DNA of 64,000 nucleotides from the IMG/VR virus record IMGVR_UViG_3300032312_001422, positions 64,001-128,000 of that record. The stretch is one strand, 5' to 3'. This stretch comes from a virus (lineage: Duplodnaviria > Caudoviricetes). The stretch's first letter is position 1. Each line of letters begins with the position of its first letter. Both the position numbers and the translations under genes were made by a program. The notes beneath the pieces were generated by a model, which saw only the letters and a program-made list of their open reading frames with translations, was not told the origin of the DNA and searched no databases. Below, in pieces: positions 9,604 to 16,844 of the stretch.

Positions 9604-9774
9604 ATGGAACAATCTAAAAAACCCGTAGACCAATTTTACTATTCCGAGGACGAATGGGCAAGGTTAGGTTGTGGCCCTTTGCCACCCGAACGTGATCGTA
9701 ACTCACAATTACAAAATGCGGTGGCACGAGGCAATTCCCGTATTGACGGTAAGAATGTAAAAGGTTATAACTGA
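9604..9774 (+). CDS. small hypothetical protein
   Basis: ATG at 9604 after TAAATA (9593-9598); MEQSKKPVDQFYYSEDEWARLGCGPLP. Confidence 0.65.
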   Translation: MEQSKKPVDQFYYSEDEWARLGCGPLPPERDRNSQLQNAVARGNSRIDGKNVKGYN

Positions 9775-9775
9775 C

Positions 9776-9853
9776 ATGGGACTATTGGCATTTGCCGTTA
9801 TTTCGGCTCTTATAATTTATCTGTTAATTTCCATCAAAGACTGGACGGAATAA
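9776..9853 (+). CDS. 25-aa membrane peptide, not in ORF track
   Basis: MGLLAFAVISALIIYLLISIKDWTE*. Confidence 0.45.
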   Translation: MGLLAFAVISALIIYLLISIKDWTE

Positions 9854-9879: not shown

Positions 9880-9885
9880 TAAATA
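9880..9885 (+). promoter_or_regulatory. T4-like late promoter box (TAAATA)
   Basis: TAAATA recurs a short distance upstream of many genes: 1324, 2039, 2524, 9593, 11349, 28209, 32063, 32318, 33233, 40510, 42598, 50141, 54370, 56044, 59037, 60584, 62272. It resembles the T4 TATAAATA late promoter. Confidence 0.7.
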
Positions 9886-9907
9886 GTGTTACAACCCAAG
9901 GAAGTCT

Positions 9908-11362
9908 ATGTTATTCGAAATCCACGCTGAGCGTAACGCCTCAGACAAAAAAATCTTTTATTATGACAACGAAACCAACACTTTAAAAAGTGAAGATGGT
10001 ACAGTATTTGAGTACCCGCAAATACAGGAACAAAATCAGACACCATTTGTTCCTTTCGATCGCAACCGACCCTTGAAGAAAAGCCGTGCAATACAGTTAT
10101 TGAAGATCCAAATGGGACTCAGTTGTAACTATAGTTGCGATTACTGTAGTCAAAAGTTTGTGGAACGTGCTCCGGAAACTTCAAAGAAAGACATTGATCT
10201 TTTTTTAGAAAAATTCAAAGTGTTAGAGTTTGATGAACAAAAGGGACTCAAAGTAGAGTTTTGGGGCGGAGAGCCATTTGTATATTGGAAAACATTCAAA
10301 CCCTTGGCTGAAGCTATTCTGGAAAAATTTTCCCATTGGAAACGCAAGCCACAGTTCAGTGTGATCACCAATGGCAGCATACTCAATGAGGAAATCATTG
10401 ACTGGCTTATGAAGCTGAACTTTGTTGTGAGCATCAGTCACGACGGTCCGGGACAACATGTGCGTGGACCCGATCCTTTTGCAGATCCTGAAAAGAAAAA
10501 ACAGATCCTGGGATTTTATCGTCAAATGAGTCGACTCAAAAAGGGCTTTAGTTTTAATCCCATGCTGAATGCTCAAAACATCAGTCGTAAACGGATCTAT
10601 GATTGGTTTGTGGATTTCACTGGAGATCCCAATGTAGTCCTAGGCGAGGGCGGAATCGTAGACAGCTATGATGCGGATGGCATGCAAAACAGCCTGCAAA
10701 CCAAACAGCAACATTTTGAATTTAGACGTACAGCCTTTGCTGATATCTTTAGCACACAAGGGCAAATTGGATTCAAGATGCAGTTGGACAAAATTGATGG
10801 CTTTACACAAAGCGTGTTGAGTCATGCTGATTCCAAGTATCTGGGACAAAAATGTGGCATGGACAATGAAAACACCTTGGCCATTGACCTACGTGGTAAT
10901 GTGATGACTTGTCAAAACGTCAGCAGTCTTGAAACTGGCAAAAACGGTGAAAGCCACTTGGGTGGTAATTTAGATGACTATGACAACGTGGCCATCAAGA
11001 CAAGTACACATTGGTCGAATCGTGCCGAATGCCCCAAGTGCCCTGTGTTGCATCTCTGTAAAGGTGCCTGCATGTTCCTGGACAAAGAGTTTTGGGATGT
11101 CAGTTGCGCCAACTCCTATTCAGACAATGTGGCCCTGTTTGCCTTGGCCATAGAAAAAATAACGGGTTATATTCCCACCTTGATCAAACAAGATGAATTG
11201 CCTTTGGAACGTCAAGACATATTTGGTACCATATACCAGCACACAGAAACTGAAAAGAAACGCATTATACCTATCAAAATTGTCAGTGAAGTAGTTGGAG
11301 AAATTGAAGGTGTTGAAGTGTATGGGCAAAGTCGTGTAGAATCAGTCATAAATACTCAATAA
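9908..11362 (+). CDS. radical SAM enzyme with SPASM domain
   Basis: CNYSCDYC (CxxxCxxC), FWGGEP, SISHDG; SPASM C-x13-G-x4-C and CPKCPVLHLCKGAC-x11-C. Confidence 0.95.
   Translation: MLFEIHAERNASDKKIFYYDNETNTLKSEDGTVFEYPQIQEQNQTPFVPFDRNRPLKKSRAIQLLKIQMGLSCNYSCDYCSQKFVERAPETSKKDIDLFLEKFKVLEFDEQKGLKVEFWGGEPFVYWKTFKPLAEAILEKFSHWKRKPQFSVITNGSILNEEIIDWLMKLNFVVSISHDGPGQHVRGPDPFADPEKKKQILGFYRQMSRLKKGFSFNPMLNAQNISRKRIYDWFVDFTGDPNVVLGEGGIVDSYDADGMQNSLQTKQQHFEFRRTAFADIFSTQGQIGFKMQLDKIDGFTQSVLSHADSKYLGQKCGMDNENTLAIDLRGNVMTCQNVSSLETGKNGESHLGGNLDDYDNVAIKTSTHWSNRAECPKCPVLHLCKGACMFLDKEFWDVSCANSYSDNVALFALAIEKITGYIPTLIKQDELPLERQDIFGTIYQHTETEKKRIIPIKIVSEVVGEIEGVEVYGQSRVESVINTQ
11349..11354 (+). promoter_or_regulatory. 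late promoter box for the Cys-rich gene
   Basis: TAAATA inside the 3' end of the rSAM gene, about 20 nt before ATG 11375. Confidence 0.6.
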
Positions 11363-11374
11363 AGTGAATTTACT

Positions 11375-12283
11375 ATGACACTACCAGCATCAGGACAAAT
11401 TGCAATCAGCGACGTCAGCGCCAAAATTGGGCAGGCCGCCACTTTCTCCACAAGTTTAAATTTCCTCAATGGATTAATTCGTAGTGATCAACGCCCGGCC
11501 ACACCTAGCATGACTGCTTTTTACAACAAAAACTATTTTCAAAATACTGCCGACGGTGCCAACTGTGCCAACGGCAACTGCACAGCAAATTGCAACTGCG
11601 GCAATATTCAATGTACTAATTGTGTCATAACTGGCACGATTAATTGTGGCAATTGTGACAGTCAGGCCTGGTTGCAGAATAACTGTAACTGTGCCTGTAC
11701 ATATAACTGTACCAGTGCAAACACAAGTTATGCGTGTAACTGTGCCTGTAACTGTAGTAAAATTATCTGCGCCAAGTTATACGACTTTGGCCTAATGGAT
11801 CAAAATATTTGGGCAGCTGACCAAGCATACGGTCAGTGGTTGCGTAAGAAAGACCGTAGAGTATATCGCGGTTATGTTCGCTGGGCACGTATTGTTACTG
11901 CTTGGATGGACGGCAAAGGTCCCAACTACATGCCCTGGATCTTGGATGCTGACCGTCGTAGTGAGGCACAAAAGGCCGCTATCACAGACATGGCTATCAA
12001 GATCGGCACACCATGGTCAGAGCATATGGCCTACTTGATGGGTGCGTTGCCCGAAGACAACGTCCAAGGACGTATTCTAATGGAAATAGGTAAACCTATT
12101 TGCCGATTTGTCGATAGCTTACCACGTGTTGGTAAAAAGTCACGTCGCCATCGCTTACCAACATTATACACAATGTGGGCTTTGTTTTACTTGAGTTACT
12201 ACACTTCTTTGGTAGGTGCTCGAACTCATTTGTTTTTTAAAAGTTTTAGTTTTGACAAACTAAGACAAAGGACAATAAAATGA
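11375..12283 (+). CDS. Asn-Cys-rich protein, candidate rSAM substrate and probably virion-associated
   Basis: 17 Cys in residues 64-132, 12 of them as NC dipeptides; MTLPASGQIAISDV N-terminus; C-terminal domain starting KIICAKL. Confidence 0.8.
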   Translation: MTLPASGQIAISDVSAKIGQAATFSTSLNFLNGLIRSDQRPATPSMTAFYNKNYFQNTADGANCANGNCTANCNCGNIQCTNCVITGTINCGNCDSQAWLQNNCNCACTYNCTSANTSYACNCACNCSKIICAKLYDFGLMDQNIWAADQAYGQWLRKKDRRVYRGYVRWARIVTAWMDGKGPNYMPWILDADRRSEAQKAAITDMAIKIGTPWSEHMAYLMGALPEDNVQGRILMEIGKPICRFVDSLPRVGKKSRRHRLPTLYTMWALFYLSYYTSLVGARTHLFFKSFSFDKLRQRTIK

Positions 12284-12918
12284 CCACGGTCATTGATGAA
12301 AGTATTTTTTCCAGTAGTGTGAAACAATCATTATGGGAATGTCCGGTGTGGCACCAAAAAACTCCGTTTACAGAAACGTTTAATAAAGAGTTGTTGAAAG
12401 AAATGTACGAGATTGCTAGTACGTTTGACGAATCCTCAGGGAAAGAATCCCTATTAGATTATGATCGTCCCTGTATGCAAGAATTAATTGACTTTAAGAC
12501 TGAGGTAATCACCAATGTTGTCAATCAATACATGCCAGACACGCAAGAAGCCCGGTTTGTTGTATCGGGTGCTTGGCTTAATGTAAACACAGCCGGAGAA
12601 CGAATCGAACTTCATGCACACCCCGATTCGTCTATAGCTTGTAGTTATTACATACAAGGACCAGATGTTGGCGGTGAGTTTTACTATGTTGATACCGGCA
12701 GAGTTGGCGAGCACCGAACAGAAATTAAAACAATAACCCCTAAAAATGGCGACATGATATTTTTGCCATCGTATGTGCTACACGGAGTCAAGATGAATCT
12801 GGGGAGATGTAGAGTAAACCTGACTACAGATTTTAAACATGACCTTACCAAAGACAGCAAGGATCAGTTAGTGTTGAAAAGTTTTATAAACAGTATGCTA
12901 AGGATTAAGGATTTATGA
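12280..12918 (+). CDS. putative 2OG-Fe(II) oxygenase (TIGR02466-like)
   Basis: WLNVN...LHAHP...CSYY...FLPSYVLHGV...RVNLT. Confidence 0.8.
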   Translation: MTTVIDESIFSSSVKQSLWECPVWHQKTPFTETFNKELLKEMYEIASTFDESSGKESLLDYDRPCMQELIDFKTEVITNVVNQYMPDTQEARFVVSGAWLNVNTAGERIELHAHPDSSIACSYYIQGPDVGGEFYYVDTGRVGEHRTEIKTITPKNGDMIFLPSYVLHGVKMNLGRCRVNLTTDFKHDLTKDSKDQLVLKSFINSMLRIKDL

Positions 12919-13313
12919 GCGATATTATTGTAGGCAAGCAACCAGTAGATTTTGATGCTGAAGATTACAACCGATATGTCAAGTATTTTTTAGACACTGA
13001 AGTTGGCGGTATTGTGTTCAATCTCACCAAGGATGAACAAGACAGCTTCTTTGAGATGTGTTATCGATATCCTGTCATATTAGACAAAGTGTTTTTGCTA
13101 CCCGGTGATCCTTTAATGAATTATATCATGTATGGTAACGAATTTTATGATGCACTCAAAAATCCACATGATGGTATTGACTTTAGTCCAAGCTACATTG
13201 TGGCTCAATATCGAGAGTGGGCTAAGGCACGCAATATACCCGAGCCTGTAGATCAAGTGGCAGTTGAAGGCTTAGATGTCACACCCATGCTGGAATTCCA
13301 AAAACAGCTATGA
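12915..13313 (+). CDS. hypothetical protein
   Basis: ATGA-coupled ORF inside the cluster; no motif recognised. Confidence 0.7.
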   Translation: MSDIIVGKQPVDFDAEDYNRYVKYFLDTEVGGIVFNLTKDEQDSFFEMCYRYPVILDKVFLLPGDPLMNYIMYGNEFYDALKNPHDGIDFSPSYIVAQYREWAKARNIPEPVDQVAVEGLDVTPMLEFQKQL

Positions 13314-13876
13314 ATCGGTACTATACTAAGTTAGATAGTATTAGTCCAAGCCTGTACAACAATTTTGAAAACCTAGGCGAACAACACGTTTGCGGCGGTG
13401 GATGGACTAGATACTACCGCACCAACTTGAGCAGAAATATACTATTGCCAGACCACTTGAAGCAGAGTTTTAATCTAAGCTACATGACATTTATTGGCGA
13501 CAATGCTCATCCACATGTGGATTTAGAGATAGGTTGTAGAATAAACATATATCTGTCTGACAATAAATGCCCAACCAAGTTCTTTAGTGTAAAGTCTGAG
13601 GAATTTACCAAACCCAAACCAGTCACGTGTGTAGGGTGTACAGTAGAAAAGTTCTGTGCTGGAGAGTGCCAGTGCAGTTACAAACTTGATAATCTAATGT
13701 TAGAGGATGAATTCGTAGCCCGCAAACACGACATATACCTGTTAAATATTCGCAAGATACACAGCGTAGAAGGACTCAGTAAAACCAATTACAGAGAAGC
13801 CCTGTCGTTTACCACCGATCTTTCTTATGAAACAGTATACGAATCTTTACAGCAATATGGCGCATTCTCTGTTTAA
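13310..13876 (+). CDS. 2OG-Fe(II)/cupin-like oxygenase with inserted Cys motif
   Basis: HVD, IHSV and R-x-A-x-S triad pattern; insert CVGCTVEKFCAGECQC. Confidence 0.65.
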   Translation: MNRYYTKLDSISPSLYNNFENLGEQHVCGGGWTRYYRTNLSRNILLPDHLKQSFNLSYMTFIGDNAHPHVDLEIGCRINIYLSDNKCPTKFFSVKSEEFTKPKPVTCVGCTVEKFCAGECQCSYKLDNLMLEDEFVARKHDIYLLNIRKIHSVEGLSKTNYREALSFTTDLSYETVYESLQQYGAFSV

Positions 13877-14384
13877 AAAACTTGCTGTAGCAGCCAATAT
13901 TGATTTTAAAATTCTAGATAAGAAAATAGAATTTGAGTTAGACTCTGCAGGTCGCCGAATACAATACTCCAACGTATCTTCACGCTACGTAGACAATTTC
14001 ATAGCTGGTCTTGGCCATCACGGAAAGCATTTTTATACAAGTTTTGTCAGCGTAGAAACAAATGTGCCGCCACACACAGACATTGTTGATCGAGTCAACA
14101 TCAACTTCTACATAGAAACAGGTGACTACCAAACTACGTTTTACAGAAGCAATGACAACTCAGCACGATTTACCTATGCAGATCACGGCGATGGTCATGC
14201 GTATCGTATAGAAGAACTAGAGCCTGTGGATAGTTTTGTTGCCCAACCCGGCGATGTGTACATTTTAAATGGTAAAAATATTCACGGAGTTGCCTGTACA
14301 GAGCCTACACCAAGAAAATTTTTGCAAGTCTCTACCAACCAGTTAGAATATGATCAAGTTTTAGAAATTTTGAATCTATGTTAA
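13857..14384 (+). CDS. 2OG-Fe(II)/cupin-like oxygenase
   Basis: PPHTD, NINFYI, IHGV, RKFLQVS; ATG 13857 preferred. Confidence 0.65.
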   Translation: MAHSLFKKLAVAANIDFKILDKKIEFELDSAGRRIQYSNVSSRYVDNFIAGLGHHGKHFYTSFVSVETNVPPHTDIVDRVNINFYIETGDYQTTFYRSNDNSARFTYADHGDGHAYRIEELEPVDSFVAQPGDVYILNGKNIHGVACTEPTPRKFLQVSTNQLEYDQVLEILNLC

Positions 14385-15082
14385 TGTTGATCTATACCAT
14401 TGCAACAATTCACCTGGGCTGTGCAGTGGCTTCGTTGTACATGCATCGGTATGTGATACACAGACAGTATCGTATGACTCCAAGAACAGAAATGGTCATG
14501 AAAGTCATGTATTGGATGTTGTTTGATGTGGTCACTAGAGAGTTTGTGGTACAACATAGAAAGCATCATGAATTCTCAGACACATACAATGATCCTCACA
14601 GTCCGAGATTTGGTTTTTGGTCATTGCTGAGATCTTGTCTGGTTCCAAGCTTCTTTAGATCCTACAAAATAACTGTGTCCGATTCGGAGTATCAGCGATA
14701 CGGTGCCGAGACTGCCACCAACACCGTTATTGATCGACACCCAAGATTGGGAGTTGTATTGTTATTGGTAATAAACATTGTGTTGTTTGGTTGGTTGGGT
14801 ATCATTGCGTGGATCGTCCATTTGTTTGCTGTGAATTTTTTAATAATAACAACAATAACAGTATTTGGGCATAGCATTGGCGGCAGGAACTTTGATCTTG
14901 GCGACTTTACTCGTAATGTTGTTCCTGTTGGCATATTGTGTGTGGGCGAAGAGCTACACAACAATCATCATAAAGATAGCAGGCTGTATAACATGGCTAT
15001 AAATAAAAATGAATTCGATCTAGGATTCTTTTATCTACAACTTTTAAATCGATTTGACTTGGTTCAATTCAAACAAAAATGA
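14378..15082 (+). CDS. membrane fatty-acid (acyl-CoA/lipid) desaturase
   Basis: His boxes HRYVIH, HRKHH and HNNHH plus TM segments. Confidence 0.9.
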   Translation: MLMLIYTIATIHLGCAVASLYMHRYVIHRQYRMTPRTEMVMKVMYWMLFDVVTREFVVQHRKHHEFSDTYNDPHSPRFGFWSLLRSCLVPSFFRSYKITVSDSEYQRYGAETATNTVIDRHPRLGVVLLLVINIVLFGWLGIIAWIVHLFAVNFLIITTITVFGHSIGGRNFDLGDFTRNVVPVGILCVGEELHNNHHKDSRLYNMAINKNEFDLGFFYLQLLNRFDLVQFKQK

Positions 15083-15678
15083 AAATAACTAAAACAGACA
15101 TGTGGGTGACCCCAGTGTGGGAAATTCAAACCGACTTTGACCAACAGTTCAACAACGAACTGCTGGACGAGCTTGGGCAGTACTGTGATCCCGAATCGGA
15201 TGTGGGCAACTCTAATATCTGGAACTGTGACACGCCACGAGTACAAGAACTAAAAAAATACACTATCAAAGTAGTCAAATCACAAACATACGATTACATA
15301 GCACCAACTGTCAAAGACTTTGAATTCTGGCACGCCCGTGGTTGGTTAAATTATCACAAGACAGGTGAAGGTATTCCCATACACGGACATGGTAGCCCTA
15401 AGATTGCAATGACCTACTATGTCAAGGCTCCCGACAACTGTGGGGATTTGTTACTGATAGATCCTCGCAACGGTTGCGACTGGGATTCAGGCAACGATGG
15501 TGTCAATGGTACCAAGTTTAACAGAATTAAACCAGTCGAAAGCAAACTGGTATTTTTCCCAGGGTTTGTATTACACATGGTCGAACCCAATCAGTCTGAC
15601 CAAGTTAGGGTATCTGTAACCAGCAACATGGGCACATTTGATAAAAGTACTGCTCAAGCATTTAAAAATACACTATAA
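15079..15678 (+). CDS. putative 2OG-Fe(II) oxygenase (TIGR02466-like)
   Basis: WLNYH...IHGHG...YYVKAP...FFPGFVLHMVEPN...RVSVTSN; paralog of 12280. Confidence 0.8.
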   Translation: MKITKTDMWVTPVWEIQTDFDQQFNNELLDELGQYCDPESDVGNSNIWNCDTPRVQELKKYTIKVVKSQTYDYIAPTVKDFEFWHARGWLNYHKTGEGIPIHGHGSPKIAMTYYVKAPDNCGDLLLIDPRNGCDWDSGNDGVNGTKFNRIKPVESKLVFFPGFVLHMVEPNQSDQVRVSVTSNMGTFDKSTAQAFKNTL

Positions 15679-15687
15679 GGATGTACA

Positions 15688-16479
15688 ATGTCATTCTATG
15701 AAAAATTAGACTTTATCAAATATGATCATGACCGCCTGGTGACCGATGTGCAACAACATGTGTTCAGTCTGGGACAAGCTGTTATACAGGGCGAGGAATA
15801 TGAAACCGATGCCTACAAGGGTTTTGGTGGATGGAGTCTGCAGAGTCAAACCGGAGACTGGCAAGACGGCTGGGAATTTTTTCAAAACGAAGAAGGCACC
15901 ACTATTGAAGAAGTATTCTTTCCCAAGGATGCTAACAATTACACTACCTTAAAATACTTTAATATTGCACATTCTTTAGAGTACAAAAAGCCCACACAGG
16001 GCTATTGCGGTGAGATTGCCGAGGTGATTGATCAAATAGAGGCATTCGGCTTGACACCTAGACGAGCCAGAGTAACCTGTTTAAAAGCTGGTAGCAAAAG
16101 CCTAGTACACAGAGATTGTGGTGAAAACCAATACATGGCACGTATACACATACCCCTGATCACCAATCCTGAGTGTACTTTTACTGCCGAAGGAGAAACC
16201 TTATACATGGAACCCGGTACGGCCTACATGGTCTGGGTAAATGTGTGGCATCAGATTCGCAATGATTCGGAACAAGATCGATATCACATAATTATGGATG
16301 CTTACGATACCAGACATGTCACAGATAAGTTCAAGTACATGGGTGATATTAGCCAGTTGGAAACCTTTGCCAACGAATTGCGGCAACAGGTTGATCAAGC
16401 TGTTGTTACTGCAGATTTGGAACAAAAGTTTGAAACTGAATTGGCAAAATGGCGAACTAAATCCAAGGTTGACACATAA
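15688..16479 (+). CDS. aspartyl/asparaginyl beta-hydroxylase-family oxygenase
   Basis: RARVTCLKAG, VHRD, RIHIPLITN, WHQIRN, RYHIIMD. Confidence 0.85.
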   Translation: MSFYEKLDFIKYDHDRLVTDVQQHVFSLGQAVIQGEEYETDAYKGFGGWSLQSQTGDWQDGWEFFQNEEGTTIEEVFFPKDANNYTTLKYFNIAHSLEYKKPTQGYCGEIAEVIDQIEAFGLTPRRARVTCLKAGSKSLVHRDCGENQYMARIHIPLITNPECTFTAEGETLYMEPGTAYMVWVNVWHQIRNDSEQDRYHIIMDAYDTRHVTDKFKYMGDISQLETFANELRQQVDQAVVTADLEQKFETELAKWRTKSKVDT

Positions 16480-16497
16480 GTTTAATAAGTATATAAT
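16469..16497 (+). promoter_or_regulatory. consensus sigma70 promoter for tmRNA
   Basis: TTGACA-17bp-TATAAT. Confidence 0.9.
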
Positions 16498-16511
16498 ATT
16501 AATATTGTTGT

Positions 16512-16804
16512 AATTCCTTCAAATTGAAGGCGCTGTGGACGGGAGTTCGATTCTCCCCGGGTCCACCAAAAGGAGATTAGCATGGATCATGAAGCTGTAT
16601 TGCTTGGTGCATTTGTTCTAATAGGATTAGTCCTAGTCTTTTTTTGATGGGCCCGACCGGTTTCGACATGGTGAGCTAGAAGAGAAGGAAACAGGACACA
16701 GATAGTCCTAAAAAGTAAATAACGTAAACGCAAACGACGAACAGTTCGCATTGGCAGCCTAACAGCCGCCTAGGGTAGGAAATACCTCGTAACAGAAATC
16801 ACCA
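16512..16804 (+). ncRNA. ssrA: two-piece (circularly permuted) tmRNA
   Basis: T-arm and acceptor 3' strand ...GGGAGTTCGATTCTCCC-CGGGTCCACCA end at 16568, before the 5' strand GGGCCCGA (16649) with a G3-U pair; tag frame 16730-16762 encodes ANDEQFALAA*. The 5' boundary is approximate. Confidence 0.93.
16582..16647 (+). CDS. 21-aa hydrophobic peptide within the tmRNA intervening segment
   Basis: AAGGAG RBS directly after CCA; MDHEAVLLGAFVLIGLVLVFF*. Confidence 0.55.
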   Translation: MDHEAVLLGAFVLIGLVLVFF

Positions 16805-16823
16805 GAGCCCCTTCGGGGGCTCT
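16804..16823 (+). terminator. GC hairpin ending tmRNA
   Basis: AGAGCCCC-TTCG-GGGGCTCT; no strong U-run follows. Confidence 0.65.
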
Positions 16824-16844
16824 AATATTTCCATACAAACACAC

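Follow-up and report, generated by a model that had tools for sequence, protein, structure and literature searches.

The locus raises the question of why the segment lying between the two pieces of a phage tmRNA, presumably discarded when the RNA matures, holds a small reading frame with an SD sequence of its own, whether this frame is a gene, and how it could be expressed from such a place. The window (the whole 64,000-nt stretch of DNA analysed) is part of a record of 288,815 bases, estimated to be 80% complete, from a giant T4-like phage of freshwater type (major capsid Gp23 match, E 4e-99). Its tmRNA is permuted and of the beta type: ARAGORN called it as tmRNA*, and it reached 160 bits with the Rfam beta_tmRNA model (RF01850, gathering score 84) and 115.8 bits with tmRNA_permuted (RF04321, gathering score 47). 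The pieces follow each other in the order acceptor, intervening segment (IVS) and coding piece, the acceptor stem has 7 bp with G3:U70, and a tag reading frame is present. There is one tmRNA per genome. No SmpB gene was found in the phage record at its 80% completeness, so host SmpB is probably used. A search of the INPHARED phages gave no cultured relative of this tmRNA, and the single metagenome that was scanned contained one locus, whose IVS was identical to that of L003.

In bacterial permuted tmRNAs the IVS is removed by tRNA-processing enzymes, which leaves a tmRNA of two pieces (PMC11915505), and phage-borne two-piece tmRNAs have also been documented, e.g. in Melnitz (PMC9004378). By analogy with the bacterial molecules, excision of the IVS is predicted for the tmRNA of the window. 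The features of the locus, together with larger genes found in the same position in related phages, are collected in Table 1.

Table 1. Features of the tmRNA locus in the window and protein genes filling the IVS at other loci
Feature	Position	Strand	Basis or remark
Sigma-70 promoter TTGACA-17-TATAAT	16469..16497	+	12/12 match; early-type; drives tmRNA precursor
tmRNA acceptor piece: T arm, 3' acceptor strand, discriminator, encoded CCA (16566-68)	16506..16568	+	RF04321, RF01850, ARAGORN
Intervening segment (IVS), 80 nt, gene cassette	16569..16648	+	from CCA end to start of coding piece
IVS closing stem, 5' arm, including SD AAGGAG (16570-16575)	16569..16577	+	fold; pairing probability; arm covariation
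21-codon ORF P0001, family A peptide	16582..16647	+	acidic N-terminus and 17-residue hydrophobic helix
Closing stem, 3' arm (last three codons, partner of SD)	16636..16644	+	fold; arm covariation
TGAT: stop and U at -1, opposite ACCA in precursor	16645..16648	+	kept in coding and non-coding IVSs
tmRNA coding piece; 5' GGG closes acceptor stem (G3:U70)	16649..16799	+	ARAGORN, Rfam
tmRNA tag frame	16730-16762	+	inside coding piece
GC-rich 3' hairpin, terminator-like	16800..16827	+	scored on minus strand; weak U tail on plus
IscU filling tmRNA IVS	L325:1388-1771		
Thioredoxin filling tmRNA IVS	L124:213-464	-	
Weak GNAT-like protein filling tmRNA IVS	L208:538-903		
CxxCxxCC protein filling tmRNA IVS	L028:5488-5745		
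PGDYG protein filling tmRNA IVS	L194:329-547		

The reading frame in the IVS and its relatives

The SD sequence AAGGAG (16570-75) is followed by a 6-nt spacer, an ATG at 16582, 21 codons, a TGA at 16645-47 and a single T before G16649. An earlier note on this DNA had described an 80-nt segment holding an SD and a 21-codon ORF whose stop lies 1 nt before the tmRNA 5' end, and all these features are present; AAGGAG was also placed correctly, except that it does not start right after CCA, from which one A separates it. The note overstated its case in holding that so exact a fit was unlikely by chance. In a sample of IVSs drawn regardless of their content a stop triplet stood at -4..-2 in 57 of 68 non-coding segments as well, because TGAT lies opposite ACCA in the precursor. 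The A/G-rich start of the IVS doubles as one arm of the closing stem, and since base pairing between the two IVS ends lengthens the acceptor stem, both the purine-rich start and the U-rich end are explained structurally. The exact fit was therefore rejected as proof of a gene, and the case for one rests on comparative data. When the interior of the ORF was shuffled the frame stayed open in 28% of cases, and was open and equally hydrophobic in 0.04%. Among 115 IVSs led by an SD sequence 110 were open inside, in comparison to 15.4 expected from shuffles.

From five scans of viral contigs we collected 189 distinct IVSs belonging to this lineage of tmRNAs, after 12 loci that lay outside the clade or were misparsed had been excluded; the boundary at L248 was set by hand. 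The direct orthologues of the window peptide are those of L190 (IVS 93% identical) and L248. In this trio the variable columns were distributed over the three codon positions as 7/1/10 and dN/dS was 0.35, values to be read with the small size of the trio in mind, the window and L190 differing by only 2 synonymous and 3 non-synonymous changes. A wider family A of 35 distinct peptides (21-27 aa) was grouped by common arms, layout and profile score; pairwise identity of the window peptide to its distant members is 10-48%, and membership beyond the trio is likely on these sequence features. The largest subfamily (n=13) had a dN/dS of 0.13, and a codon model with omega=1 was rejected (lnL -431.8 vs -465.5, 2dlnL 67). 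No significant selection was detected in the VKW subfamily (2dlnL 2.4), and dN/dS was near 1 in another family, B25. Over the whole of family A the entropy by codon position was 1.16/0.56/1.32. Family A also includes free-standing genes, situated 140-420 nt in front of tmRNA spacers (HMM E as low as 4e-12); the one at L115 resembles the subfamily of the window.

The check that the earlier note had proposed, i.e. conservation of the ORF and dN/dS in related spacers, showed the ORF to be kept and under purifying selection, rather than missing from the homologous segments. Taken as comparative evidence, these data indicate that the ORF is selected as a protein, and the frame in the window is very probably a real, translated gene. 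An exact look-up of the peptide in a protein collection gave no match, probably because it is below the length used by gene callers.

The opposite view would make the ORF an untranslated by-product of RNA structure, dictated by the A/G-rich arm, the U-rich arm and the fixed TGAT. The entire IVS indeed folds as a long hairpin, the TGA is structural as described above, U-rich sequence yields hydrophobic codons, and a comparable ORF, that of S23p in the 23S rRNA IVS of Coxiella, is apparently untranslated in vivo (PMC4990558). The z-score of the fold of the window's IVS is only -1.34, however, and the codon-position pattern, the likelihood-ratio test, the free-standing homologues and the bona fide enzymes in the same position all speak against it. 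A pure RNA-structure artefact is largely refuted by the codon selection and the excess of open frames, and we consider it extremely unlikely.

Exchange of cargo between tmRNA halves

In the sample drawn regardless of IVS content, 29 of 97 phage IVSs were filled by an SD, an ATG and an ORF, and 68 were non-coding. The length of the phage IVSs in this lineage ranged from 26 to 474 nt. Among 76 distinct bacterial IVSs (23-44 nt, mostly of Rhodocyclales by record title) none contained a self-contained gene. The IVS of the window is unlike the short non-coding hairpin of the Rhodocyclales-type bacteria, a trait that is typical of them and not defining. Thioredoxin (E 4e-21) and NifU_N/IscU (3e-55) fill their IVSs end to end, and a permuted tmRNA was confirmed around both.

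The occupant of the IVS differed even where the 137-nt tmRNA cores were identical, and could be thioredoxin, a CxxC peptide, a family A peptide or a non-coding hairpin. On the tmRNA tree, family A needed 31 state changes for 37 members and a single clade was rejected (p-AU 2e-50), whereas a clade of the window trio was compatible with the data (p 0.63); the tree is unrooted and its alignment short (147 columns, from an RNA that is probably mosaic), so we read no direction from it. Judged from these comparisons, the cargo is swapped between phages independently of the tmRNA. The earlier note was right about a peptide gene in the IVS and overlooked that the peptide is one occupant of a general, exchangeable slot.

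The thioredoxin gene illustrates how a gene may enter the slot. Its 91%-identical relatives, located between nrdA and nrdB, are preceded by a weak SD, and their C-terminus is KVK or KV. The copy in the IVS, by contrast, has the AAGGA of the slot and the C-terminus KVSL, the extra codons being the 3' arm of the stem. Such a pattern indicates that thioredoxin moved into the slot from the nrdA-nrdB region and took on the SD and the C-terminal codons found there. A similar C-terminal difference was observed for IscU, and nine long cargo IVSs of several unrelated families end in VSL. As read from the sequences, each constant arm of the slot contributes part of the gene, the 5' arm its SD and the 3' arm its final codons together with the stop. 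Capture, we infer, proceeds by recombination between short homologous stretches, either in these arms or in the tmRNA halves.

Several further observations concern the cargo. The 52-nt IVS of L259 is a deletion remnant of a 64-aa cargo gene of the L148 type in which both stem arms are retained, which suggests that the cargo is dispensable and the stem is not. Non-coding cargo of 97-98 nt recurs on different tmRNA cores (L001, L020, L025, L115, L161), and the 93-nt IVS of L053 carries recurring non-coding cargo with a stretch resembling a tRNA T arm. The coding cargo ended in three ways, 75 of 111 ORFs having their stop at -1 and 14 at -9 to -13, while 22 read through the IVS. Stop-less ORFs run into the tmRNA coding piece at L077, L089, L094, L189, L224, L228, L264 and L277 (101-nt IVS), and others were seen at L017, L253, L186, L222 and L201. 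The CxxC cargo family is selected within the IVS (dN/dS 0.27) and variable past it. After the RNase P cut, stop-less cargo would become a non-stop mRNA, and as such a substrate of the tmRNA itself. Tags of ~29-30 residues, some ending in LAV, were noted at L190:5092-5530, L248:3127-3565 and L003:6262-6711, the tag of the window being a standard one of 10 residues; the tag region appears to be exchanged as well.

Expression of the cargo and function of the peptide

In 113 of 114 coding IVSs the pairing partner of the SD core lies within the last 22 nt of the segment, and the pairing probability in the window is 0.99. The arms of an IVS pair better with each other than with swapped arms in 77 of 86 cases. 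The earlier note had proposed that expression of the peptide is coupled to the tmRNA, and structurally the ORF is indeed tied to the precursor, its SD being occluded by its own last codons. The excised IVS folds with -19.8 kcal/mol and leaves the SD paired; opening of 16569-16594 in this molecule costs 12.6 kcal/mol. In an equilibrium calculation on the nascent RNA of the window, opening of the SD cost no more than 0.8 kcal/mol up to 16640 and 5-8 kcal/mol afterwards. For the wider site, 16569-16594, the same kind of calculation gave 8.5 kcal/mol already at 16610, so the period for loading may be narrower. The corresponding cost for free-standing family A genes was only slightly lower than for those in IVSs (median 9.1 vs 11.6, p 0.04).

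These calculations are consistent with the following scheme. The precursor would be transcribed from the perfect sigma-70 early promoter, and the SD would be free only until the 3' arm is made, ~45 nt later (~1 s), so that initiation would have to occur on the nascent transcript. As long as a ribosome occupied the ORF or its stop, the closing stem and the 5' acceptor strand would be kept from folding. Given its footprint size, a ribosome positioned at the stop codon would also cover the 5' acceptor strand, so that the RNA should not be able to be translated and to fold into the RNase P substrate simultaneously. With the ribosome gone, the stem would close over the SD, and host RNase P and 3' trimming would excise the IVS and end expression. 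The peptide would be made early and in small amounts, set by how many tmRNA transcripts there are. Such a loading period, with a delay of ~1 s, is sufficient for the maturation gene of MS2 (PMC4615214). On this model, translation probably takes place mainly on the unprocessed nascent precursor.

A more elaborate version would make the spacer a self-limiting cassette, in which the arms donate SD and stop, expression is confined to a nascent burst, ribosome traffic on the cargo gates maturation of the tmRNA, and stop-less cargo is tagged by the tmRNA; we regard it as a tentative proposal, rather less likely than its simpler counterpart. If it were true, the supply of mature phage tmRNA would respond to the state of translation. 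The commonest upstream neighbour of the tmRNA is a cold-shock protein gene (45 loci, median offset -273, e.g. L006, L095, L102), and cold-shock RNA chaperones could melt the IVS stem. No cold-shock protein gene was found in the genome of the window at its 80% completeness.

Two other accounts of expression were weighed against nascent translation ended by processing. The peptide gene might be real and its coupling to the tmRNA without meaning, the IVS being merely a tolerant insertion site under a strong promoter and the stem serving tmRNA processing; ribosomes would melt or out-compete the stem, and the gene would be expressed like any in a tRNA operon. The same families do occur as ordinary genes just upstream of the tmRNA, the cargo is functionally unrelated, often non-coding and sometimes decayed (as at L259), and the arms of coding IVSs are weaker than those of non-coding ones (-7.5 vs -11.6 kcal/mol). 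Yet the SD itself is almost always the paired strand and the C-terminal codons of captured genes are rewritten to pair with it, so that occlusion is built in, whether or not it was selected as regulation. We find this account unlikely; its difference from the preferred one is a matter of degree, and most of the latter could hold alongside it. The earlier note had left it open whether processing releases or destroys a mini-mRNA. A stable messenger translated after excision would agree with the complete SD-to-stop unit between two cleavage sites and with the predominance of stops exactly 1 nt before the cut. However, the SD is still paired in the excised hairpin, just 1 nt follows the stop, the ORFs lacking a stop inside the IVS would become non-stop messages after the cut, and the 23S rRNA IVS of Coxiella is rapidly degraded once excised (PMC4990558). 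Active release was rejected on account of the closed SD and is highly unlikely, leaving destruction, or an end to expression, as the part of that proposal that holds.

As to function, the window peptide forms one hydrophobic helix (maximal hydropathy over 17 residues 3.03). All 35 family A members have an N-terminus with a net charge of -1 to -3, and in every one the last 14 positions are free of charged and polar residues, the uncharged C-terminal helix comprising 14-17 residues. The acidic N-terminus and the uncharged helix suggest, as a prediction from sequence, a single-pass inner-membrane peptide with its N-terminus out. Searches of Pfam, NCBIfam, PHROGs and PDB gave no match for the family, HMMs being insensitive at 21-27 aa. 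Small proteins of the KdpF/AcrZ/MgtS type act on membrane proteins by way of such a helix. The peptide may likewise be a dispensable early accessory whose helix binds to a host inner-membrane protein or modulates it, and on its sequence it is likely to be a modulator rather than a toxin.

The earlier note had compared the peptide to type I toxins or small membrane regulators; the single transmembrane segment was borne out, and the toxin part of the comparison is weak. A type I-like membrane toxin (acting by killing, depolarisation or superinfection exclusion) with its mRNA silenced by the stem would fit the length and hydrophobicity, which are like those of IbsC (19 aa), itself without a basic C-terminus (PMC8309996), and it would fit the strong early promoter. 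Basic C-termini are typical of type I toxins, IbsC, ShoB and DinQ being exceptions (PMC8309996), whereas family A peptides have an acidic N-terminus and the apolar C-terminal end described above. The likeness to IbsC, ShoB and TisB is one of size (~20 aa) and of a single hydrophobic helix; the window peptide shows no sequence match, no basic or polar face and no evident antitoxin. A self-occluded SD recalls type I toxin mRNAs, but harmless occupants of the slot (thioredoxin, IscU, non-coding hairpins) have the stem as well, and family members also occur as free-standing genes. No promoter-like site was found on the minus strand between 16650 and 17000 that could serve an antisense RNA. A toxin is thus quite unlikely, somewhat more so than a gene without meaningful coupling. 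The reading that we prefer as a whole, i.e. a gene slot holding a real single-pass peptide gene, translated on nascent RNA until processing ends it and acting on a host membrane protein, is moderately likely.

A search of gene neighbourhoods gave no membrane partner, and homologues of the MFS transporter encoded downstream were absent from the vicinity of other tmRNA loci. The sole enriched neighbour was a 56-59-aa soluble protein, an enrichment that may reflect shared ancestry. In the window this protein (56 aa, with the motif RLGCGPLP) is encoded at 9604-9774 and followed by a 25-aa transmembrane ORF at 9776-9853. Its homologues are mostly encoded ~350 nt ahead of the tmRNA spacer, although in L273 and L305 they occupy the IVS itself; they tend to occur together with family A (13/49 vs 8/142 loci, p 2e-4). 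A radical-SAM/oxygenase block at 9880-16479 separates the RLGCGPLP genes from the tmRNA in the window, which suggests that the block was inserted. Directly upstream of the tmRNA in L151 and L155 lies a 24-aa ORF which we take to resemble the PQQ precursor PqqA.

Known relatives of the slot and its significance

With the bacterial permuted beta tmRNAs the phage molecule shares the piece order, G3:U70, a tag ending in ALAA and an IVS stem that extends the acceptor helix; the bacterial IVSs are short, geneless hairpins, whereas ~30% of those in the phage lineage carry protein genes. A survey of tmRNAs published in 2025 reports IVSs that contain a tRNA gene or a repeat element and makes no mention of an ORF (PMC11915505).

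The closest parallel is provided by the 23S rRNA IVSs of Coxiella, Leptospira and Brucella with their S23p ORF, where an ORF also lies in a stem-bounded segment that is cut out without religation (PMC4990558). That system involves one protein family, excision by RNase III, a poor SD and an ORF that in Coxiella is decaying and, as noted above, apparently untranslated (PMC4990558), in contrast to the many unrelated genes, strong SD within the stem, purifying selection and presumed RNase P and 3'-trimming of the phage tmRNA IVSs. The RNA that hosts the segment here is a tmRNA, and no S23p Pfam match was obtained among the 10 cargo proteins scanned.

The MS2 (levivirus) maturation gene appears to be alike in that its SD is exposed just on the nascent transcript, before an inhibitory helix closes it (PMC4615214). 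In MS2 the blocking sequence lies upstream and is delayed by a metastable hairpin (PMC4615214); in the tmRNA IVS it consists of the last codons of the ORF, the delay would be transcription time, and the RNA would then be cleaved. In the PeSL-mediated shuffling of T4-type phages small genes are likewise gained, lost and exchanged between conserved flanks (PMC2839356, PMC4122927); the flanks there are repeated promoter-early stem-loop motifs, and here tmRNA halves with stem arms that carry SD and stop.

Literature searches yielded no description of genes in tmRNA IVSs, a passing mention elsewhere being possible; the small gene is real and so is the slot that holds it, which is apparently undescribed. 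In these phages the tmRNA spacer, regarded as processing waste, is a coding, swappable gene slot, and thioredoxin offers a case of gene capture caught underway, with a new SD and C-terminus provided by an RNA stem. Annotation tools mask the whole tmRNA gene and overlook peptides of this length, which leaves a large set of conserved phage mini-genes unseen, at least 35 sequences in family A alone. The locus also offers a small system, open to experiment, in which translation would compete with RNase P processing for a single RNA. As far as the sequences tell, the tmRNA precursor of these phages is probably a dual-function transcript whose spacer acts as a short-lived messenger.
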